A stretch of DNA of 64,000 nucleotides, from assembly GCA_041665945.1 (NCBI GenBank), contig JBAYHU010000002.1, forward strand, positions 107,350-171,349. The letters are read 5' to 3'. Of the stretch, positions 768 through 61,443 are shown piece by piece. The position numbers and the translations under genes were made by a program. The stretch comes from Candidatus Micrarchaeia archaeon (lineage in GTDB: Archaea > Micrarchaeota > Micrarchaeia > Anstonellales > Anstonellaceae). Positions within the stretch are counted from its first letter, which is position 1. Each line of letters opens with the position of its first letter. The notes beneath the pieces were generated by a model. The model had not been told where the DNA came from, did no database searches, and saw only the letters and a list, made by a program, of their open reading frames with translations.

Positions 768-1889
768 ATGTCCACCAAAAAGGATTACTACGAGATACTG
801 GGCGTTGCGCGCACGGCTACCAAGGACCAGATAAAGGACGCCTACCGCACGCTCGCGCTCAAGTTCCATCCCGACCGCAACAAGGACGCGGGCGCGGAGG
901 ACAGATTCAAGGAGATTTCTGAGGCATATGCCGTGCTGTCGGACAACGAGAAGAGGCAGACATATGACCAGTACGGGCACGCGGGATTCGACCAGCGCTA
1001 TTCGCAGGAGGACATATTCAGGAACGCAAATTTCGAGGACATTTTCCGCGAGTTCGGCTTTGCTGGCGCGGGCGGCTCGCCTTTCGACGACATGTTCGCA
1101 TCCGCGTTTTTCGGAGGGACGCCTCGAAGGCAGGTTGGCAGGGGGGCGGATTTGAGATACGACCTGCACATCTCGCTTGAGGAAGCCGCAAAGGGGCTTA
1201 CGCATGAAATCGCGTACAAGCGCAACCGCGCGTGCGAACGCTGCAACGGAAGCGGCGCGGAGCCGGGAAGCAAGGTCGCCACATGCAAGGCGTGCGGGGG
1301 CAGGGGGCAGGTTCGCCAAAGCAGGTCGCTTGGCGCGTTCGGAAGCTTCACAAGCGTGGTCACCTGCCCGCAATGCGCTGGCAACGGCAGGCGGCCGGAG
1401 AAAGCGTGCAAGGATTGCAAAGGGAGCGGCTCGCAGATTTACGATGAAAAGCTCGAGGTGGAAATACCCGCGGGCGTGGACACCGGCTCGCGGCTGCGCG
1501 TGGCCGGAATGGGCGAGCGCGGCCCCGCGGCAAGCGGCGACCTTTACGTTTTTGTCATGGTGAAGGAGCACCAGCTCTTCAAGCGGGAAGGGGACGACAT
1601 CCACCTTGAGACGCCAATCAGCTTTTCGCAGGCCGCGCTTGGCGCGGAAATAGAACTGCCCACTCTTTCGGGCAAGGCGAAGCTCAAGATTCCGGCAGGC
1701 ACGCAGACCGGCGCAATCTTCCGCCTGAAAGGAGAGGGCATGCCCCGCGTCCAATACAGCAGCAAGGGGGATCTGTTCGTGCACATCGTCGTCAGGACGC
1801 CCACCAACCTGTCCGACAAGCAGAAGAAAATTCTGTCGGACTTGGGCGACACTCCGAAGAAAGGCTTCTTTGATGGGATGTTTAGATGA
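768..1889 (+). CDS. dnaJ: molecular chaperone DnaJ (Hsp40)
   Basis: J-domain KDYYEILGV...HPDRN with HPD motif. Gly/Phe-rich linker. Four CxxCxGxG zinc-finger repeats. C-terminal substrate-binding domains. Confidence 0.95.
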   Translation: MSTKKDYYEILGVARTATKDQIKDAYRTLALKFHPDRNKDAGAEDRFKEISEAYAVLSDNEKRQTYDQYGHAGFDQRYSQEDIFRNANFEDIFREFGFAGAGGSPFDDMFASAFFGGTPRRQVGRGADLRYDLHISLEEAAKGLTHEIAYKRNRACERCNGSGAEPGSKVATCKACGGRGQVRQSRSLGAFGSFTSVVTCPQCAGNGRRPEKACKDCKGSGSQIYDEKLEVEIPAGVDTGSRLRVAGMGERGPAASGDLYVFVMVKEHQLFKREGDDIHLETPISFSQAALGAEIELPTLSGKAKLKIPAGTQTGAIFRLKGEGMPRVQYSSKGDLFVHIVVRTPTNLSDKQKKILSDLGDTPKKGFFDGMFR

Positions 1890-2124
1890 GCGAAGCGAAT
1901 CTAAACAGACAAGCATCCGTAGATGCTTGGATGTTCCGCTGAGTCGCAACGAAGCGGAACAGACAGCACGAAGCGCTGGATGTTTAGGTGAGTCAGACGA
2001 ACCTAAACAGATGACAATGCCGCAGCATTGGCGGATGTTCAGGTGAGCGAAGCGAATCTAAACAGACAGTGCCCGCAGGCACTGGATGTTCAGGTGAGCG
2101 TTTTGCAAAGCCGCAACTTTGCAA
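1876..2124 (+). repeat. tandem array of about 4.5 units (49-55 bp), each with two stem-loops and an ATG-TTY-Arg-TGA mini-ORF; ends in a TTGCAAAG/CTTTGCAA hairpin
   Basis: Units start at 1876, 1929, 1978, 2033 and 2084 with the conserved core GGATGTTyAGrTGAGCGAAGCGAAyCTAAACAGACA. The first stem shows compensatory change (GTTTAGAT/ATCTAAAC versus GTTCCGCT/AGCGGAAC). The second hairpin is variable but palindromic (AAGCATCcgtaGATGCTT, CAATGCcgcaGCATTG, AGTGCCcgcAGGCACT). Unit 1 overlaps the dnaJ stop codon. Confidence 0.8.
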
Positions 2125-2160: not shown

Positions 2161-2177
2161 AGTTGCACATCAGCATC

Positions 2178-2843
2178 ATGCCCCAAGCCTCCCTGCTTTA
2201 CCGGAAAGGCTCCAGCCTACTGGTCAAGGACGGCTTTGACTGGGCCAACCCATTGAAATCGAAGATTAAAGGGCCGCTTATCCTGCATGGCACATCCAGC
2301 CTTCTCTTGGAAAACATAATGAAGCGTGGTTTGGACCGCAGGGTGCCCCTGCTTACTGCTGAAGAAAGAAAGGTTCTGGAGACTCCGCTTTCCAAAAGCC
2401 CAGTAATTCTGAACCAGAAGAGCATCTCGACCGGGAATGTCGAGCGGATAAGCCTGACATATTCGACTGGCATTGCAATATGCCATGCGAGAAAAGGGCC
2501 GGAAATATTCGAGCGCATAATGATGGCGTTTAAGTCCGGGCAAATGCCGGATTTGCCCGAATTCAGGAGCATATTTGAGAAACTTCAGGGATTTCTAGCT
2601 GGGCACAAGCCAGTTGTGCTGTTCATCGATTCCGTTAAGCTTGGCGCAAGCCGCCCGGAGGCTGACGCACCAGATACCCCCGTACTCCTCAGAAATCTTG
2701 GAAAGGATGGCTGGAGCAAATCGCAGATTCTGGAATTCATCGCGCGGGAGAAGAACCATTATTGCATAGAGCAGGATATCGCCGGAGTTCCGCCCGAAGC
2801 GATTGTGGCGGCAGAAAACGTGGAAAGATTTGCCATGAAATGA
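2178..2843 (+). CDS. hypothetical protein (GC lower than flanking genes)
   Basis: The track ORF 2163..2843 begins at a TTG; the ATG at 2178 (MPQASLLYRKG...) sits a leaderless distance from the TATA box. No recognisable motif. GC about 50% against about 58% around it. Confidence 0.6.
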   Translation: MPQASLLYRKGSSLLVKDGFDWANPLKSKIKGPLILHGTSSLLLENIMKRGLDRRVPLLTAEERKVLETPLSKSPVILNQKSISTGNVERISLTYSTGIAICHARKGPEIFERIMMAFKSGQMPDLPEFRSIFEKLQGFLAGHKPVVLFIDSVKLGASRPEADAPDTPVLLRNLGKDGWSKSQILEFIAREKNHYCIEQDIAGVPPEAIVAAENVERFAMK

Positions 2844-2888
2844 CGGCAGCAGGCACTTTGGCAAAAGAGAACTCTTTTTTATCCTTGC

Positions 2889-12100: not shown

Positions 12101-12200
12101 AAGACTGCGGCAGCAGTCTTACGCGCCTAAGGCAACTGCAACAGCAGTTGTCTGCGAGGTAGAGCCCGAAGGGCTCTACAACGTAGAGCCGCAGGCTCTA
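12101..12200 (+). repeat. array of four consecutive perfect stem-loops followed by an oligo-T tract (intrinsic terminator region)
   Basis: AAGACTGCggcaGCAGTCTT (12101-12120), CAACTGCaacaGCAGTTG (12133-12150), GTAGAGCCCgaaGGGCTCTAC (12159-12179) and TAGAGCCgcaGGCTCTA (12184-12200). The hairpin pairs differ by compensatory substitutions. The T-rich run 12207-12240 serves the convergent genes. Confidence 0.7.
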
Positions 12201-14783: not shown

Positions 14784-15374
14784 ATGGCAGAGGAAAACAG
14801 GATTGAAGAGGATGCTCCTGAAGAGGAGCGAGAGGAGAAAGAAGATGGAAAGCGGACAATCGCCGCGAGCCGCAGCGAGGGGCGAGCTGTGCCCGAAGGG
14901 CACACAATAGCATCAAGGGGCATTCCCTCCAAGGATTCGCTTTACCTCCCTCCGCACAATTCCCCGGAGCTTCGCGCATTCCAGGACGGGAATGAGGGGA
15001 TAACGCGGAACATCTGGAACCTTGAGGAGATAGCGAACTTTGTTTTCCCCAAGAAATACCAGGCGAAATACAACGAGATAGCCGTGGCGTTCCTCAAGCT
15101 CGCGCTTGACAGGGGCACGCTGTCCGGCGACGACATAGGGCATTTCGTTTCGCAGAACGGGATATCCAAGGCGACATTCTACAACAGGGTGCTGCCTCGC
15201 CTCAAGAGAATCGGGATGCTGAAGGTGGAGAGGCAGACCATAATCGCGCTTGAGAGCAAGAGGAAATTCCGCCCCATGACAATCACGCTTTCGAAAACCT
15301 TCGGGAACTACCTGATGAAGATAGGCGACTCGTGGCTCGCGCTTGTGGATGACGCGCGCAGCAAGAAGAAATAG
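14784..15374 (+). CDS. hypothetical protein with acidic N-terminus and winged-helix-like C-terminal half (putative regulator)
   Basis: Glu-rich N-terminus, then NEIAVAFLKLALDRGTLSGDDIGHFVSQNGISKATFYNRVLPRLKRIGMLK, which is HTH-like. Leaderless promoter spacing. Confidence 0.5.
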   Translation: MAEENRIEEDAPEEEREEKEDGKRTIAASRSEGRAVPEGHTIASRGIPSKDSLYLPPHNSPELRAFQDGNEGITRNIWNLEEIANFVFPKKYQAKYNEIAVAFLKLALDRGTLSGDDIGHFVSQNGISKATFYNRVLPRLKRIGMLKVERQTIIALESKRKFRPMTITLSKTFGNYLMKIGDSWLALVDDARSKKK

Positions 15375-50072: not shown

Positions 50073-50222
50073 GGCGACCGGATTATTCTTTGCTTTTGTG
50101 TTTAAAAAATCAAGGTAAGGATGATACCGCTGAAGAAGTAGGAAGCCCCCGACGAGCGACAACACGAAGTGTTGTCGCGATTTTGACCCGCAGGTCAAAA
50201 CGGGGGCTCGAACCGCAGTGAG

Positions 50223-50294
50223 AGCCCCCGACGAGGATTGAACTCGTGACCTCGTGCTTACCATGCACGCGCTCTACCGCTGAGCTACAGGGGC
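50223..50294 (-). tRNA. tRNA-Thr (anticodon GGU)
   Basis: Reverse complement reads GCCCCTGTAGCTCAGCGGTAGAGCGCGTGCATGGTAAGCACGAGGTCACGAGTTCAATCCTCGTCGGGGGCT. 7-bp acceptor stem with one G-U pair. D-arm GCTC/GAGC. Anticodon stem CGTGC/GCACG with loop AUGGUAA. T-arm ACGAG/CTCGT with loop TTCAATC. No encoded CCA. Confidence 0.85.
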
Positions 50295-50383
50295 ATGGAA
50301 AATTTCCTCAGAAATTTTCCAGTATTCGAGCCGCAGCTCGAATCTGATTTACAAAATCCCGCAGGATTTTGTAAAATTGACGC

Positions 50384-55930: not shown

Positions 55931-56710
55931 TTACTGCCTGTTCGAGTTTCCCCTGTAGCCGCCGGAGTGCGGGCGCGAGCCGCCGCTCCTGTATCCGCCT
56001 TCGCGCGGGCCGCTGCTGCGGTATCCGCCCTCGCGCCTCTCGTGCTGCTCTTCCTGCGGAGGCATCTGCGGCTGCTGCGGAGCGCCTGCCCCTTGGTCGA
56101 TTATGATTTGGGGCTGGGACTTGAGGAATGCCGCAACGCGGTCGGTAAGACCAGTCGTGTGCGCCTGCGCCTCAATCATCTTCACAGCCTTCTCGGCAAG
56201 CGGGGCGTTTCCCTTGCCCGCAATCCATACGTAGCCGTTCCTGCCCGCGAATATGTCGCAGCCGGTCGTTGCCTTTATCATGTCAATCATCGAGTTTTTC
56301 TTGCCGATGATTCTAGGTATTTTCACGGATGACACCTTCACCAGCTTGCCCGGCGGAAGCTTCATCGCGTCGTTGAGTTCCGTCGAGCGGACCTCGTCAA
56401 TCATGGCGATTTTCGCGAAAAGCGCGTCGCCCATCACGTATCTCTCGCGGATTTCCCTCGAGGAGAGGAACGCGGGGTATGCGCAGTTCATTTGGACCGA
56501 GTAGCCGGAAAATTTGACTTCTGTCACGATTCCGACAACGTAGTCGTCGGGCAGCGGCTCATACGGGCCTTCGAGCGGCACGAGTTTCCCCTCGTGGTAA
56601 AGCCCGACCACCGTGGAGTAGGTTTTTCCGTTCGCCACGTACGCGTAACTTATCCTGTCGGGCTTGTCGGATATCATCTCGCCCGGCATCACGATTTTTC
56701 CTTCCATCAT
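55931..56710 (-). CDS. rrp4: exosome RNA-binding subunit Rrp4 (S1 + KH) with C-terminal Gly/Tyr/Arg-rich tail
   Basis: S1 and KH (RIIGKKNSMIDMIKATTGCDI) domains. Tail EGGYRSSGPREGGYRSGGSRPHSGGYRGN. Confidence 0.8.
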   Translation of the reverse strand: MMEGKIVMPGEMISDKPDRISYAYVANGKTYSTVVGLYHEGKLVPLEGPYEPLPDDYVVGIVTEVKFSGYSVQMNCAYPAFLSSREIRERYVMGDALFAKIAMIDEVRSTELNDAMKLPPGKLVKVSSVKIPRIIGKKNSMIDMIKATTGCDIFAGRNGYVWIAGKGNAPLAEKAVKMIEAQAHTTGLTDRVAAFLKSQPQIIIDQGAGAPQQPQMPPQEEQHERREGGYRSSGPREGGYRSGGSRPHSGGYRGNSNRQ

Positions 56711-60534: not shown

Positions 60535-60651
60535 CGAGATACCCCCCGATTTATTCTTGTTATAAGAATTAAAGAAGCTTTGCCGGGCGGCTTGCCCAAG
60601 CCCCTTCTGCCAGCCGGTGTTGCAGGCAAAGAAGCTTTGCCGGGCGGCTGC

Positions 60652-61443
60652 CTAAACCTGCTTGCCCTCGCCCGTGTTGTAGGAAATCATGCGGCGAATC
60701 ATGTCGCACATCTCGTAGAACTCCGGGTCGCGCTCGTGGTCGTATCTCGGGCGCGGGATGTCAATCGGGATGTCGCCAATCACCCTGCCCGGGCGCTTGG
60801 AAAGCACGATGACGCGGTCAGCCATCATCACTGCTTCTTCTATCAGGTGGGTAATCATGAGGAAGGTGTTGGTGACTGTTTTCGCGTCGTTCCAGATTTC
60901 CAGAACATCGCGGCGCAATTGGTTCGCCGTCATGGCGTCAAGCGCGGAGAAGGGCTCGTCCATGAGCAAAACGCAGGGCTCAACGGCAAGGGCGCGGGCT
61001 ATTCCCACGCGCTGCTTCATGCCGCCCGAAAGCTCGTAGGGGTAGGCGTCGGCAAAGTCGTCGAGGTCCATGAGCCGGATGTATTTGAGAACGGTGGGCT
61101 TGCGCTTTTCCTTCGGAACCCCGATGGACTGCAAGCCGAGTTCTATGTTCTCGTAAACAGTGCGCCAGGGAAGAAGCGCGAATGTCTGGAAAATCATCGC
61201 AGAGGTGCGGGGATTTGGCCCTGTGATGTCGCGCCCGCGGAAAAGCGCCTTGCCCGTTGTCGCAGTGTCAAGCCCGGCAACAATCCGGAGAAGAGTGGAC
61301 TTGCCGCAGCCGGACGGCCCCAAGACGCACACGAACTCGTGCTCGTTTATGGAAAATGAGACGTCGTCGAGGATTTTCTTCCTCATCCTGCCCTCGGAAT
61401 ATTCCCTGCCCACGTGCTTGACTTCTATTTCGGGAACGAACAT
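60652..61443 (-). CDS. ABC transporter ATP-binding protein (NitT/TauT aliphatic sulfonate/nitrate family)
   Basis: Walker A GPSGCGKST, ABC signature LSGGMKQRVGIARAL, Walker B LLMDEPFSALD. Confidence 0.9.
   Translation of the reverse strand: MFVPEIEVKHVGREYSEGRMRKKILDDVSFSINEHEFVCVLGPSGCGKSTLLRIVAGLDTATTGKALFRGRDITGPNPRTSAMIFQTFALLPWRTVYENIELGLQSIGVPKEKRKPTVLKYIRLMDLDDFADAYPYELSGGMKQRVGIARALAVEPCVLLMDEPFSALDAMTANQLRRDVLEIWNDAKTVTNTFLMITHLIEEAVMMADRVIVLSKRPGRVIGDIPIDIPRPRYDHERDPEFYEMCDMIRRMISYNTGEGKQV

Follow-up and report, generated by a model that had tools for sequence, protein, structure and literature searches.

The bacterial palindrome arrays known as repetitive extragenic palindromic sequences (REPs) and bacterial interspersed mosaic elements (BIMEs) are the closest described counterparts of the element reported here. 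REPs belong to one family present at hundreds of dispersed sites, with a GTAG/CGTC head and a cognate transposase, RAYT. Classically, they are barriers to 3'-to-5' mRNA decay and weak terminators (PMC3733652). We analysed a 64,000-nucleotide stretch of a Candidatus Micrarchaeia archaeon (contig JBAYHU010000002.1, positions 107,350 to 171,349; hereafter the window), in which the stop codon of dnaJ is followed by an array of tandem hairpins. By analogy, this dnaJ array would work most like the REP/BIME stabilisers of 3' untranslated regions (UTRs): in both cases short, imperfect tandem palindromes lie just after a stop codon and vary in copy number between strains. There are differences as well. 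The dnaJ element is archaeal, it is confined to a single locus across 243 kb of sequence made up of the 64-kb window and related loci, its hairpins are unit-specific, and the gene's own codons serve as a stem arm. Its units start with GGAT and end with AGAC rather than carrying a GTAG/CGTC head, and no Y1 transposase was found among the called genes of the dnaJ loci.

Two further systems invite comparison. The mycobacterial interspersed repetitive units (MIRUs) of Supply and colleagues (reported in 1997) are said to be tandem intergenic repeats of about 50 bp with tiny open reading frames (ORFs) linked to the stop of the preceding gene; these ORFs reportedly continue in frame across the repeats, and a role in coupling the translation of operon genes has been proposed for them. 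The dnaJ array shares the tandem intergenic repeats of about 50 bp with tiny ORFs at an upstream stop codon, whereas its unit lengths are not multiples of three, its frame covers only three codons, and its AUG lies in a stem. Repetitive hairpin-forming elements (RHEs) of organelle genomes, for example those of sponge mitochondria, are short GC-rich hairpins that accumulate between genes, often in clusters (PMC2800124). RHEs are dispersed selfish families with shared sequence, unlike the dnaJ array, which is anchored to one gene, is conserved across genomes and has a second hairpin (hairpin B) private to each unit. An Rfam search (with an E-value threshold) of the window region and six related loci returned only a chance Yfr20 match (E = 5.4), and literature searches gave no description of a dnaJ hairpin array. 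The array is in no RNA-family catalogue; the element is real, conserved and selected. It is a novel variation on extragenic palindrome arrays, with an unusual overlap of a gene terminus with a repeated RNA or DNA structure.

The array starts within the coding sequence. The last three dnaJ codons and the stop, ATG TTT AGA TGA at 1878-1889, form the 5' arm of the first hairpin. An identical protein, encoded on the 239-kb ENA metagenome contig ERZ27249449 k141_836229 together with archaeal ribosomal genes, contains the Pfam domains DnaJ, DnaJ_CXXCXGXG and DnaJ_C. Its homologues are DnaJ proteins of Candidatus Micrarchaeota/Micrarchaeia, most of which end in Met-Phe-Arg (MFR) or Met-Phe-Gly (MFG). 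When the window was searched with the pattern GGATGTTNNNNTGAG, allowing at most one mismatch, there were exactly five matches (1876, 1929, 1978, 2033 and 2084, all on the + strand) and none elsewhere in the 64 kb. Shuffled sequence gave a mean of 0.79 matches, and none of 100 shuffles gave five. An earlier note, made from the sequence of this stretch, had reported five repeat cores after dnaJ at start-to-start distances of 53, 49, 55 and 51 nt, and all were found as described. Each core reads ATG-TTY-(AGA/CGC/AGG)-TGA, the first being the true end of dnaJ. The same region was not reported by Tandem Repeats Finder. The features of the locus, with units abbreviated below as U1 to U5, are as follows.

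768 to 1889, + strand: dnaJ coding sequence, 373 amino acids, from the ORF list.
1876 to 1928, + strand: unit 1, covariance-model score 54.5 bits.
1879 to 1907: unit 1 hairpin A, TGTTTAGAT-GA-GCGAAGC-GA-ATCTAAACA, with G-GA and GA-C flanks.
1910 to 1929: unit 1 hairpin B, CAAGCATC-CGTA-GATGCTTG, a perfect 8-bp hairpin.
1929 to 1977, + strand: unit 2, with hairpin A at 1932-1961, TGTTCCGCT-GA-GTCGCAAC-GA-AGCGGAACA.
1964 to 1978: unit 2 hairpin B, with one mismatch.
1978 to 2032, + strand: unit 3, with hairpin A at 1981-2009, TGTTTAGGT-GA-GTCAGAC-GA-ACCTAAACA, followed by AGAT.
2013 to 2032: unit 3 hairpin B, GACAATGC-CGCA-GCATTGGC, with one A·G mismatch.
2033 to 2083, + strand: unit 4, a chimera whose stem has one C·A mismatch and one G·U pair.
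2067 to 2084: unit 4 hairpin B, CAGTGCC-CGCA-GGCACTG, a perfect 7-bp hairpin.
2084 to 2100, + strand: unit 5, a terminal half unit, GGATGTTCAGGTGAGCG, which keeps ATG TTC AGG TGA and has no 3' arm.
2101 to 2124, + strand: a TTTT run and a separate 8-bp hairpin (2103-2124, TTGCAAAG-CCGCAA-CTTTGCAA), not a repeat unit.

The consensus unit can be written G-GA-[UGUUYMGNU]-GA-[mini-hairpin or 5-8 nt loop]-GA-[ANCKRAACA]-GA-C, followed by hairpin B, which is short, GC-rich, private to each unit and placed between GA-C and the next G-GA. Hairpin A is a 9-bp stem made from dnaJ ATG-TTY-Arg-T and capped by tandem G·A mismatches and a mini-hairpin. A single building block, in which a helix is followed by two tandem G·A mismatches and then by a small hairpin, is used twice per unit, and the modules alternate head to tail. 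In its first use, the 9-bp R/R' helix of hairpin A lies outside; in its second, AACA and UGUU of neighbouring units pair outside, with hairpin B inside. Two G·A motifs have their 5' halves within the frame itself, one supplied by the A of ATG and the other by the GA of TGA, and the nine nucleotides in between form the stem. A layout of GA, 9 bp and GA therefore spells A-TG...T-GA, and the four-codon frame arises automatically.

This anatomy refines the outline in the earlier note. A covarying stem of 8 bp had been proposed for every unit; the covariation is real, and the perfect stem, which measures 9 bp, is restricted to U1, U2 and U3 (TGTTTAGAT/ATCTAAACA, TGTTCCGCT/AGCGGAACA and TGTTTAGGT/ACCTAAACA), since U4 is imperfect and U5 is a half unit. 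A perfect second hairpin after each core was likewise found for U1 and U4; those of U2 and U3 have one mismatch each, and U5 has none as a half unit. The repeats extend to 2100 rather than to 2124, as 2103-2124 is a different, terminator-like hairpin. Oligo-T is an archaeal terminator, and the TTTT run plus hairpin at 2101-2124 is likely to be the end of the dnaJ transcript.

We next turn to the structure of the units. The window region folds with a predicted energy of -108 kcal/mol (z = -6.5 relative to shuffled sequence). Pairing and covariation were assessed on an alignment of 23 units. Pairing occurs in 91.9% of stem cells, compared with 80.8% in shuffles and 24-42% when the partners are slid. 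Cells changed on both sides numbered 37 against an expected 14.0, a count reached in none of 500 shuffles, and RNAalifold independently recovered the 9-bp stem. The structure of the stems is selected, as the earlier note had argued from covariation. Variation is limited to three pairs (columns 8-29, 9-28 and 11-26, the last showing all four Watson-Crick types). The non-coding GA dinucleotides on the 3' side are invariant or at least 90% conserved, like the coding ones on the 5' side, although a complementary TC would lengthen the perfect stem; this equal conservation means that the G·A mismatches themselves are selected.

Conservation between genomes points in the same direction. Fourfold-degenerate sites of dnaJ are only 0.37-0.69 identical between array-bearing genomes, and sequence just beyond the last unit is unrelated between them. 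Window U3 is nevertheless orthologous to U2 of a related locus, L043 (loci outside the window carry L numbers): the arms are identical, the rare AGAT variant is present in both, and hairpin B is compensated from T-A to C-G. As unit arms remain identical where fourfold sites of dnaJ are nearly saturated, the array is under purifying selection. Two deviations from Watson-Crick pairing are also informative, namely a U·G wobble in the ACCTGGAC-type unit, which is retained in three genomes (L028, L009 and L045), and the AGAU variant, which has a G·U closing pair.

The distribution of the array was examined in several collections. When 185,579 species genomes were scanned, 24 matches were obtained, two of which were real arrays, both in Micrarchaeia metagenome-assembled genomes and both at the dnaJ stop, while the rest were chance. 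Metagenomes of the Joint Genome Institute, scanned with a stricter two-unit pattern, gave 11 matches; seven were real arrays, all at the dnaJ stop, and four were chance. Among 11 DnaJ homologues sampled by protein, five had arrays (P0005, P0008, P0011, P0014 and P0017). The five core matches in viral contigs were all chance, with no stems and no arrays. Altogether there are 15 arrays with 49 units, all at dnaJ, ranging from one full plus one half unit to five full plus one half unit; a terminal half unit ends nearly every array found in other genomes. A search of related genomes, which the earlier note had proposed, thus finds the array conserved at the 3' end of dnaJ in 15 loci. A covariance model built from the 23 units and run on 243 kb (the window and related loci) matched dnaJ-3' arrays only, apart from a detached piece of the L027 array and a weak match just downstream of dnaK. 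The gene that comes next may be lysS or a convergent one, but the array keeps its place behind dnaJ, and it therefore belongs to dnaJ. In all genomes that have it, it is positioned between the dnaJ stop codon and a T-run, and T-runs occur only at the array end (TTTT at 2101 in the window, T5-6 in other genomes), none following interior units.

In addition to forming a stem arm, each core resembles a tiny ORF. Exactly ATG-Phe-Arg-stop is read in 27 of 34 downstream units. One further unit reads MFG-stop (ATG TTC GGG TGA, unit 2 of L040, whose DnaJ ends MFG), and two start with GTG, both well-formed and interior (L043 U2 and L045 U2). The remaining four are defective (MLR-stop, MFC-stop, a 1-nt frameshift and ATT, which replaces ATG in the degenerate unit L045 U3) and are either terminal or in a decaying array. 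The earlier note's statement that all units read Met-Phe-Arg-stop with synonymous variation only holds for the five window cores and extends to 21 interior full units in the 15 genomes, which have zero nonsynonymous changes in Phe, Arg or stop codons. Across units, all six Arg codons and all three stops occur, and the Ser codons AGC and AGT are absent throughout. The stem pairs that vary coincide precisely with the three synonymous sites, and covariation is strong only there. A coding-type constraint is thus imprinted on the whole unit family.

How such a constraint can reach non-coding copies is indicated by exchange between units. Chimeric units with uncompensated arms are present in the window (U4), L009 (U2), L027 (U2), L028 (U5) and L029 (U1). 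The 5' arm of window U4 is identical to that of U5, and its loop and 3' arm are identical to those of U1; this joining of a U5-type 5' arm with a U1-type loop and 3' arm accounts for its C·A mismatch and G·U pair. Hairpin B families recur in differing order among genomes, and the entire first unit differs between L009 and L027 though their dnaJ fourfold identity is 0.86. Each main unit type (AGA, AGG, CGC, CGC-TAG, CGT and GGA) is dnaJ-terminal in some genome. Unequal recombination or gene conversion between the conserved cores GGATGTT and AACAGAC makes the array expand, contract and change its order. The earlier suggestion of a template for duplicating the 3' end of dnaJ comes close to these data, in that units do exchange with the dnaJ-terminal position. 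In L028 (3885-3898), DnaJ ends in Met-Phe-Lys; its AAG codon breaks one stem pair, and AGG is retained in the two units that follow. The coding copy here seems to have undergone a nonsynonymous change without compensation. Cumulatively, these results establish the following: 1) the array is structured and conserved, and its stems covary; 2) its units recombine; and 3) it is linked to dnaJ.

Given such exchange, direct selection on the interior copies need not act, and selection for a mini-peptide, at which the earlier note had hinted, is not needed for the pattern: the G·A motifs have equally conserved non-coding partners, units with GTG or ATT exist, and MFG tracks dnaJ. The mini-ORF is probably a side effect of the structure and of unit exchange with the coding copy, rather than a functional ORF. 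Units would repeatedly have moved into the dnaJ-terminal position, where only synonymous variants would survive.

The G·A motifs also allow comparison with known protein-binding RNA, namely the kink-turns and kink-loops (K-loops) through which archaeal C/D and H/ACA guide RNAs bind L7Ae. A K-loop has been described as a helix followed by tandem G·A pairs and then a loop (PMC8413462, PMC1636426). The dnaJ helix is similarly capped by two tandem G·A pairs (5'-UGA...GAA-3') and then a loop of 5-8 nt; the arrangement 5'-U-GA-(5-8 nt)-GA-A-3' is present in 23 of 23 aligned units except for TAA variants, the loop is predicted to form 1-2 bp, and a sheared geometry is not readable from sequence. Unlike a K-loop, the dnaJ loop is predicted to close with those 1-2 Watson-Crick pairs, and a U-A rather than a U·U pair lies beside the G·A pairs. 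Unlike a kink-turn, the dnaJ G·A motifs are symmetric 2x2 internal loops with no 3-nt bulge. Nine base pairs plus two G·A layers also recall the 'GA stem' of H/ACA RNA (PMC4652768).

A hairpin of the same design was observed elsewhere on the contig. About 7.6 kb upstream of the window start, the stop of dnaK (HSP70) is followed by a long terminator-like hairpin and then a T-run (L001, 2399-2440), and the hairpin apex (L001, 2404-2428) reads ATTTGAAT-GA-GCAAGGC-GA-ATTCAAAT. The hairpin was not found after dnaK in L044.

We put at about an even chance the reading in which the units form a lineage-specific, cis-acting structured 3' UTR array, peculiar to a single Candidatus Micrarchaeia clade, that stabilises the dnaJ transcript, helps terminate it, or both, whose K-loop-like, G·A-capped helices may bind an L7Ae-type protein, and whose copy number changes by recombination. 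The stacked hairpins would shield the 3' end of dnaJ mRNA from 3'-to-5' decay, as REP/BIME arrays do in bacteria, would help to define that end ahead of the T-run, or would do both, while the G·A-capped helices would be candidate K-loop-like sites for an L7Ae-type protein. From the position between stop codon and T-run, the conserved U·G wobbles of the sense strand and the matching dnaK hairpin, we infer that RNA, and not DNA, is the functional form; the stabiliser or terminator role and the protein binding are likewise proposed at this level.

Several observations weigh against this transcript-level reading. The reverse strand of the array region folds about equally well (z = -7.2) because the units are palindromes. 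Stem G·U pairs and A·C mismatches are about equal in number (9 and 7), so that counts do not settle the folding strand, and strand choice rests on which wobbles and mismatches stay conserved across genomes. Hairpins are not known to be required for termination in archaea. The array is also dispensable: six of the 11 loci sampled by DnaJ protein are without it, including the two closest relatives (92% and 80% DnaJ identity), an absence in close relatives that the earlier note had listed as evidence against its proposal and that is thus partly observed. In these the region downstream of dnaJ is rearranged, and in L038 all that is left is a vestigial hairpin. A purely structural element does not readily account for the distribution of changes, as the other six stem pairs are invariant or nearly so while three are saturated, and the explanation therefore needs a coding filter acting through unit exchange. 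Ten of 13 terminal half units keep the Met-Phe-Arg-stop frame with no pairing partner, which unit exchange explains only if conversion is frequent. Even units without the G·A motif keep a stop, in the form of TAG or TAA (TAG-type units, L046 U2 with TAA inside a GTAA loop, and L029 U2 with TAA). Together, the half-unit frames and the TAG/TAA stops leave some room for direct selection on the mini-ORF. The last point of this kind comes from a tRNA gene in the window, where the GA of a comparable hairpin is on the strand antisense to the tRNA; this fits a DNA-level feature better than an RNA one.

That gene, a tRNA-Thr (50222-50294, minus strand), was the only feature returned by a tRNA and transfer-messenger RNA scan of the window. 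Its 3' end is exactly duplicated, with the 13 nt AGCCCCCGACGAG at both 50144-50156 and 50223-50235. Two private perfect hairpins (50156-50178 and 50181-50200) lie between the copies, and in the hairpin at 50201-50230 (CGGGGGCTC-GA-AC CGCA GT-GA-GAGCCCCCG) one arm is the acceptor 3' strand of the tRNA. Perfect hairpins with stems of at least 7 bp are more frequent in the window than in shuffled sequence (50 versus 31); clusters at 12101-12200, 14860-14904, 50156-50230 and 50296-50375 have the common loops CGCA, GAA and GCA, and the motif of helix, GA, mini-hairpin and GA recurs at 14860-14885, at 50201-50230 and after the dnaK stop. Of the tandem-hairpin clusters, one follows the ribosomal P1/L12 gene in an intergenic region of convergent type and another is located in the 3' region of purA. 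At 12159-12200, an arm of 8-9 nt alternates direct, inverted, direct, inverted.

These hairpins bear on the alternative that best survives, which we consider unlikely though worth serious attention: a palindrome array made at the DNA level, in which a local replication or recombination process (fold-back or template switching, or a hairpin-recognising enzyme) would repeatedly deposit an inverted copy, then a private hairpin and then the last 13-15 nt of a gene in direct orientation, with little or no RNA function. Molecular drive, in the form of gene conversion and palindrome correction, would then maintain the array, with the coding constraint on its first copy as an anchor. The tRNA-Thr locus has the same layout, the sole other direct-inverted-direct arrangement in the window; this parallel, with the GA on the antisense strand, is the main argument for a DNA-level origin and hints at a DNA-level copying process. 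The alternating 9-nt arm at 12159-12200 agrees with this, as do the arrays of L036, L043 and L046, whose outermost cores match each other but not those inside, as if a block had been inserted with target duplication. The same is true of the loops of GNA or GCGAAGC type, as such loops form very stable mini-hairpins in DNA. By contrast, palindrome correction should have replaced the GA/GA mismatches by Watson-Crick pairs, and these mismatches persist in nearly every unit. The conservation of arms and hairpin B stems despite near-saturated synonymous sites would need selection or very high conversion, the units are not dispersed, and no candidate enzyme was found. One further argument concerned polarity, since the CGCA/GAA loops are all on the + strand regardless of gene orientation (9 versus 0). 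We rejected this asymmetry as the sign of a replication-linked DNA mechanism: there are only four independent clusters, for which a single polarity is not significant (about 1 in 8), and the loci L044-L046 lack it. GC skew along the window has no clear switch point.

A broader version of DNA-level copying appears to us rather improbable. Some DPANN archaea might possess a gene-end-copying process that adds three parts behind a gene, as seen at dnaJ and tRNA-Thr: its last ~9 nt inverted, one or two private hairpins, and its last 13-15 nt in direct orientation, with an end at most 1 nt from the functional 3' end. The copies would be kept as spare termini, as folded recombination sites or, for dnaJ, as translated three-codon ORFs. 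If true, this would be a new mobile or self-propagating hairpin element, or a new use of 3' UTR mini-ORFs.

The units might instead be folded recombination sites of att or integron attC type, with the 3' end of dnaJ as an integration hotspot and the terminus copies restoring the gene, and we think this very improbable. Accretion at att sites and attC share with the dnaJ array the copies of a gene 3'-terminus that differ only in gene-preserving ways, hairpin sites with AAC/GTT, and variable genes downstream; the AAC...GTT ends, the unpaired GA spacer and the variable stem recall attC in particular. The stop codon marks the exact end of the repeated core, much as att cores finish at the 3' ends of target genes, and the tRNA-Thr duplicate ends at most 1 nt from the tRNA end. 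Gene content downstream of dnaJ is highly variable (window 2163-2843; L037, L038, L043, L044, L047 and L050), and in L027 an insert of about 600 bp with an ORF splits the array, with units on both sides. However, that is the one case of core-flanked cargo: when all loci were scanned for ATGTTY-Arg-stop, no other cargo gene was flanked by a second core, and the only other match (window 38080) was chance. The dnaJ copies are only 49-55 bp apart and abut without intervening cassettes, their cores do not match the consensus RYYYAAC/GTTRRRY, no integrase lies beside any array, viral contigs gave no true match, and neither Pfam nor PHROGs gave a mobile-element or integrase signature for the inserted genes.

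Least probable of all is that the interior Met-Phe-Arg-stop mini-ORFs are translated, for instance by reinitiation after the dnaJ stop, with translation or the tripeptide under selection: the 27 exact frames, the use of every Arg and stop codon with no Ser AGC/AGT, the stops retained where the G·A motif is lost and the frames of unpaired half units favour it, whereas the AUG is buried (UG in the 9-bp stem, A in the G·A motif), no Shine-Dalgarno-like sequence lies upstream, ATG is lost to GTG or ATT in some units, the peptide follows DnaJ instead of being fixed, the GA, 9-bp and GA layout accounts for the frame, and the coding filter can act wherever a unit type becomes dnaJ-terminal. We know of no function for such a tripeptide.

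Other candidates were tried and rejected; for the C/D box, H/ACA, CRISPR and selenocysteine insertion types, the table of units was compared by eye with the features expected. For box C/D small RNA, only the unit length (50-60 nt) fits; where a C box (RUGAUGA) and a D box (CUGA) would be expected, GGAUGU and NUGA are 3-4 nt apart with no guide spacing of about 12 nt, and there was no Rfam match. An H/ACA small RNA would be at odds with the lack of a pseudouridylation pocket and a lower stem, with an ACA located inside the stem and not 14-15 nt away, and with flanks that are self-complementary hairpins. For a CRISPR (clustered regularly interspaced short palindromic repeat) array, the 'spacers' would be hairpins of 13-20 nt shared between genomes, whereas CRISPR repeats of 23-50 nt alternate with unique spacers of about 26-72 nt that are not palindromes, and the loci contain no cas genes. 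An integron attC array has only AAC...GTT in common, with no cassettes between units and no integrase in the loci. A selenocysteine insertion sequence, a 3' UTR hairpin whose G·A quartet serves to recode a UGA in frame, is not indicated, as the dnaJ stop is TGA, TAA or TAG depending on the genome and no Rfam match to such an element was obtained.

Some features around the array were recorded in passing. Between dnaJ and lysS, the genes differ from genome to genome and mostly defy annotation (window 2163-2843; L037, L038, L043, L044, L047 and L050); the 226-amino-acid ORF at 2163-2843 of the window has no Pfam or PHROG match, and the insert downstream of dnaJ in L047 encodes an AbiEii toxin. 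The L027 insert (190-790) has a minus-strand ORF with its own TATA-like box, and array units lie at 87-190 and 813-890. A conserved motif, CTCTTTTTTATCC, precedes lysS in the window (2866-2888) and in L003, L033, L040, L045 and L046; it may combine the T-run terminator of the upstream transcript with the TATA box and TFB-recognition element (BRE) region of lysS. Tandem Repeats Finder reported a repeat of 57 nt x 2 (78% matches) at 60571-60683 and one of 30 nt x 2.1 at 55973-56036.

Very little is known about how DPANN archaea build and protect the 3' ends of their mRNAs, and the array adds a conserved, covariation-supported structure at a chaperone gene that is absent from Rfam. It is also a natural example of coding constraint leaking into non-coding repeats as units shuttle through the end of an ORF, and it identifies synonymous-only variation as a trap when translated mini-ORFs are to be inferred. 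If L7Ae binds the G·A-capped helices, or if the tRNA-Thr parallel reflects real gene-end copying, the interest of the array would rise considerably.

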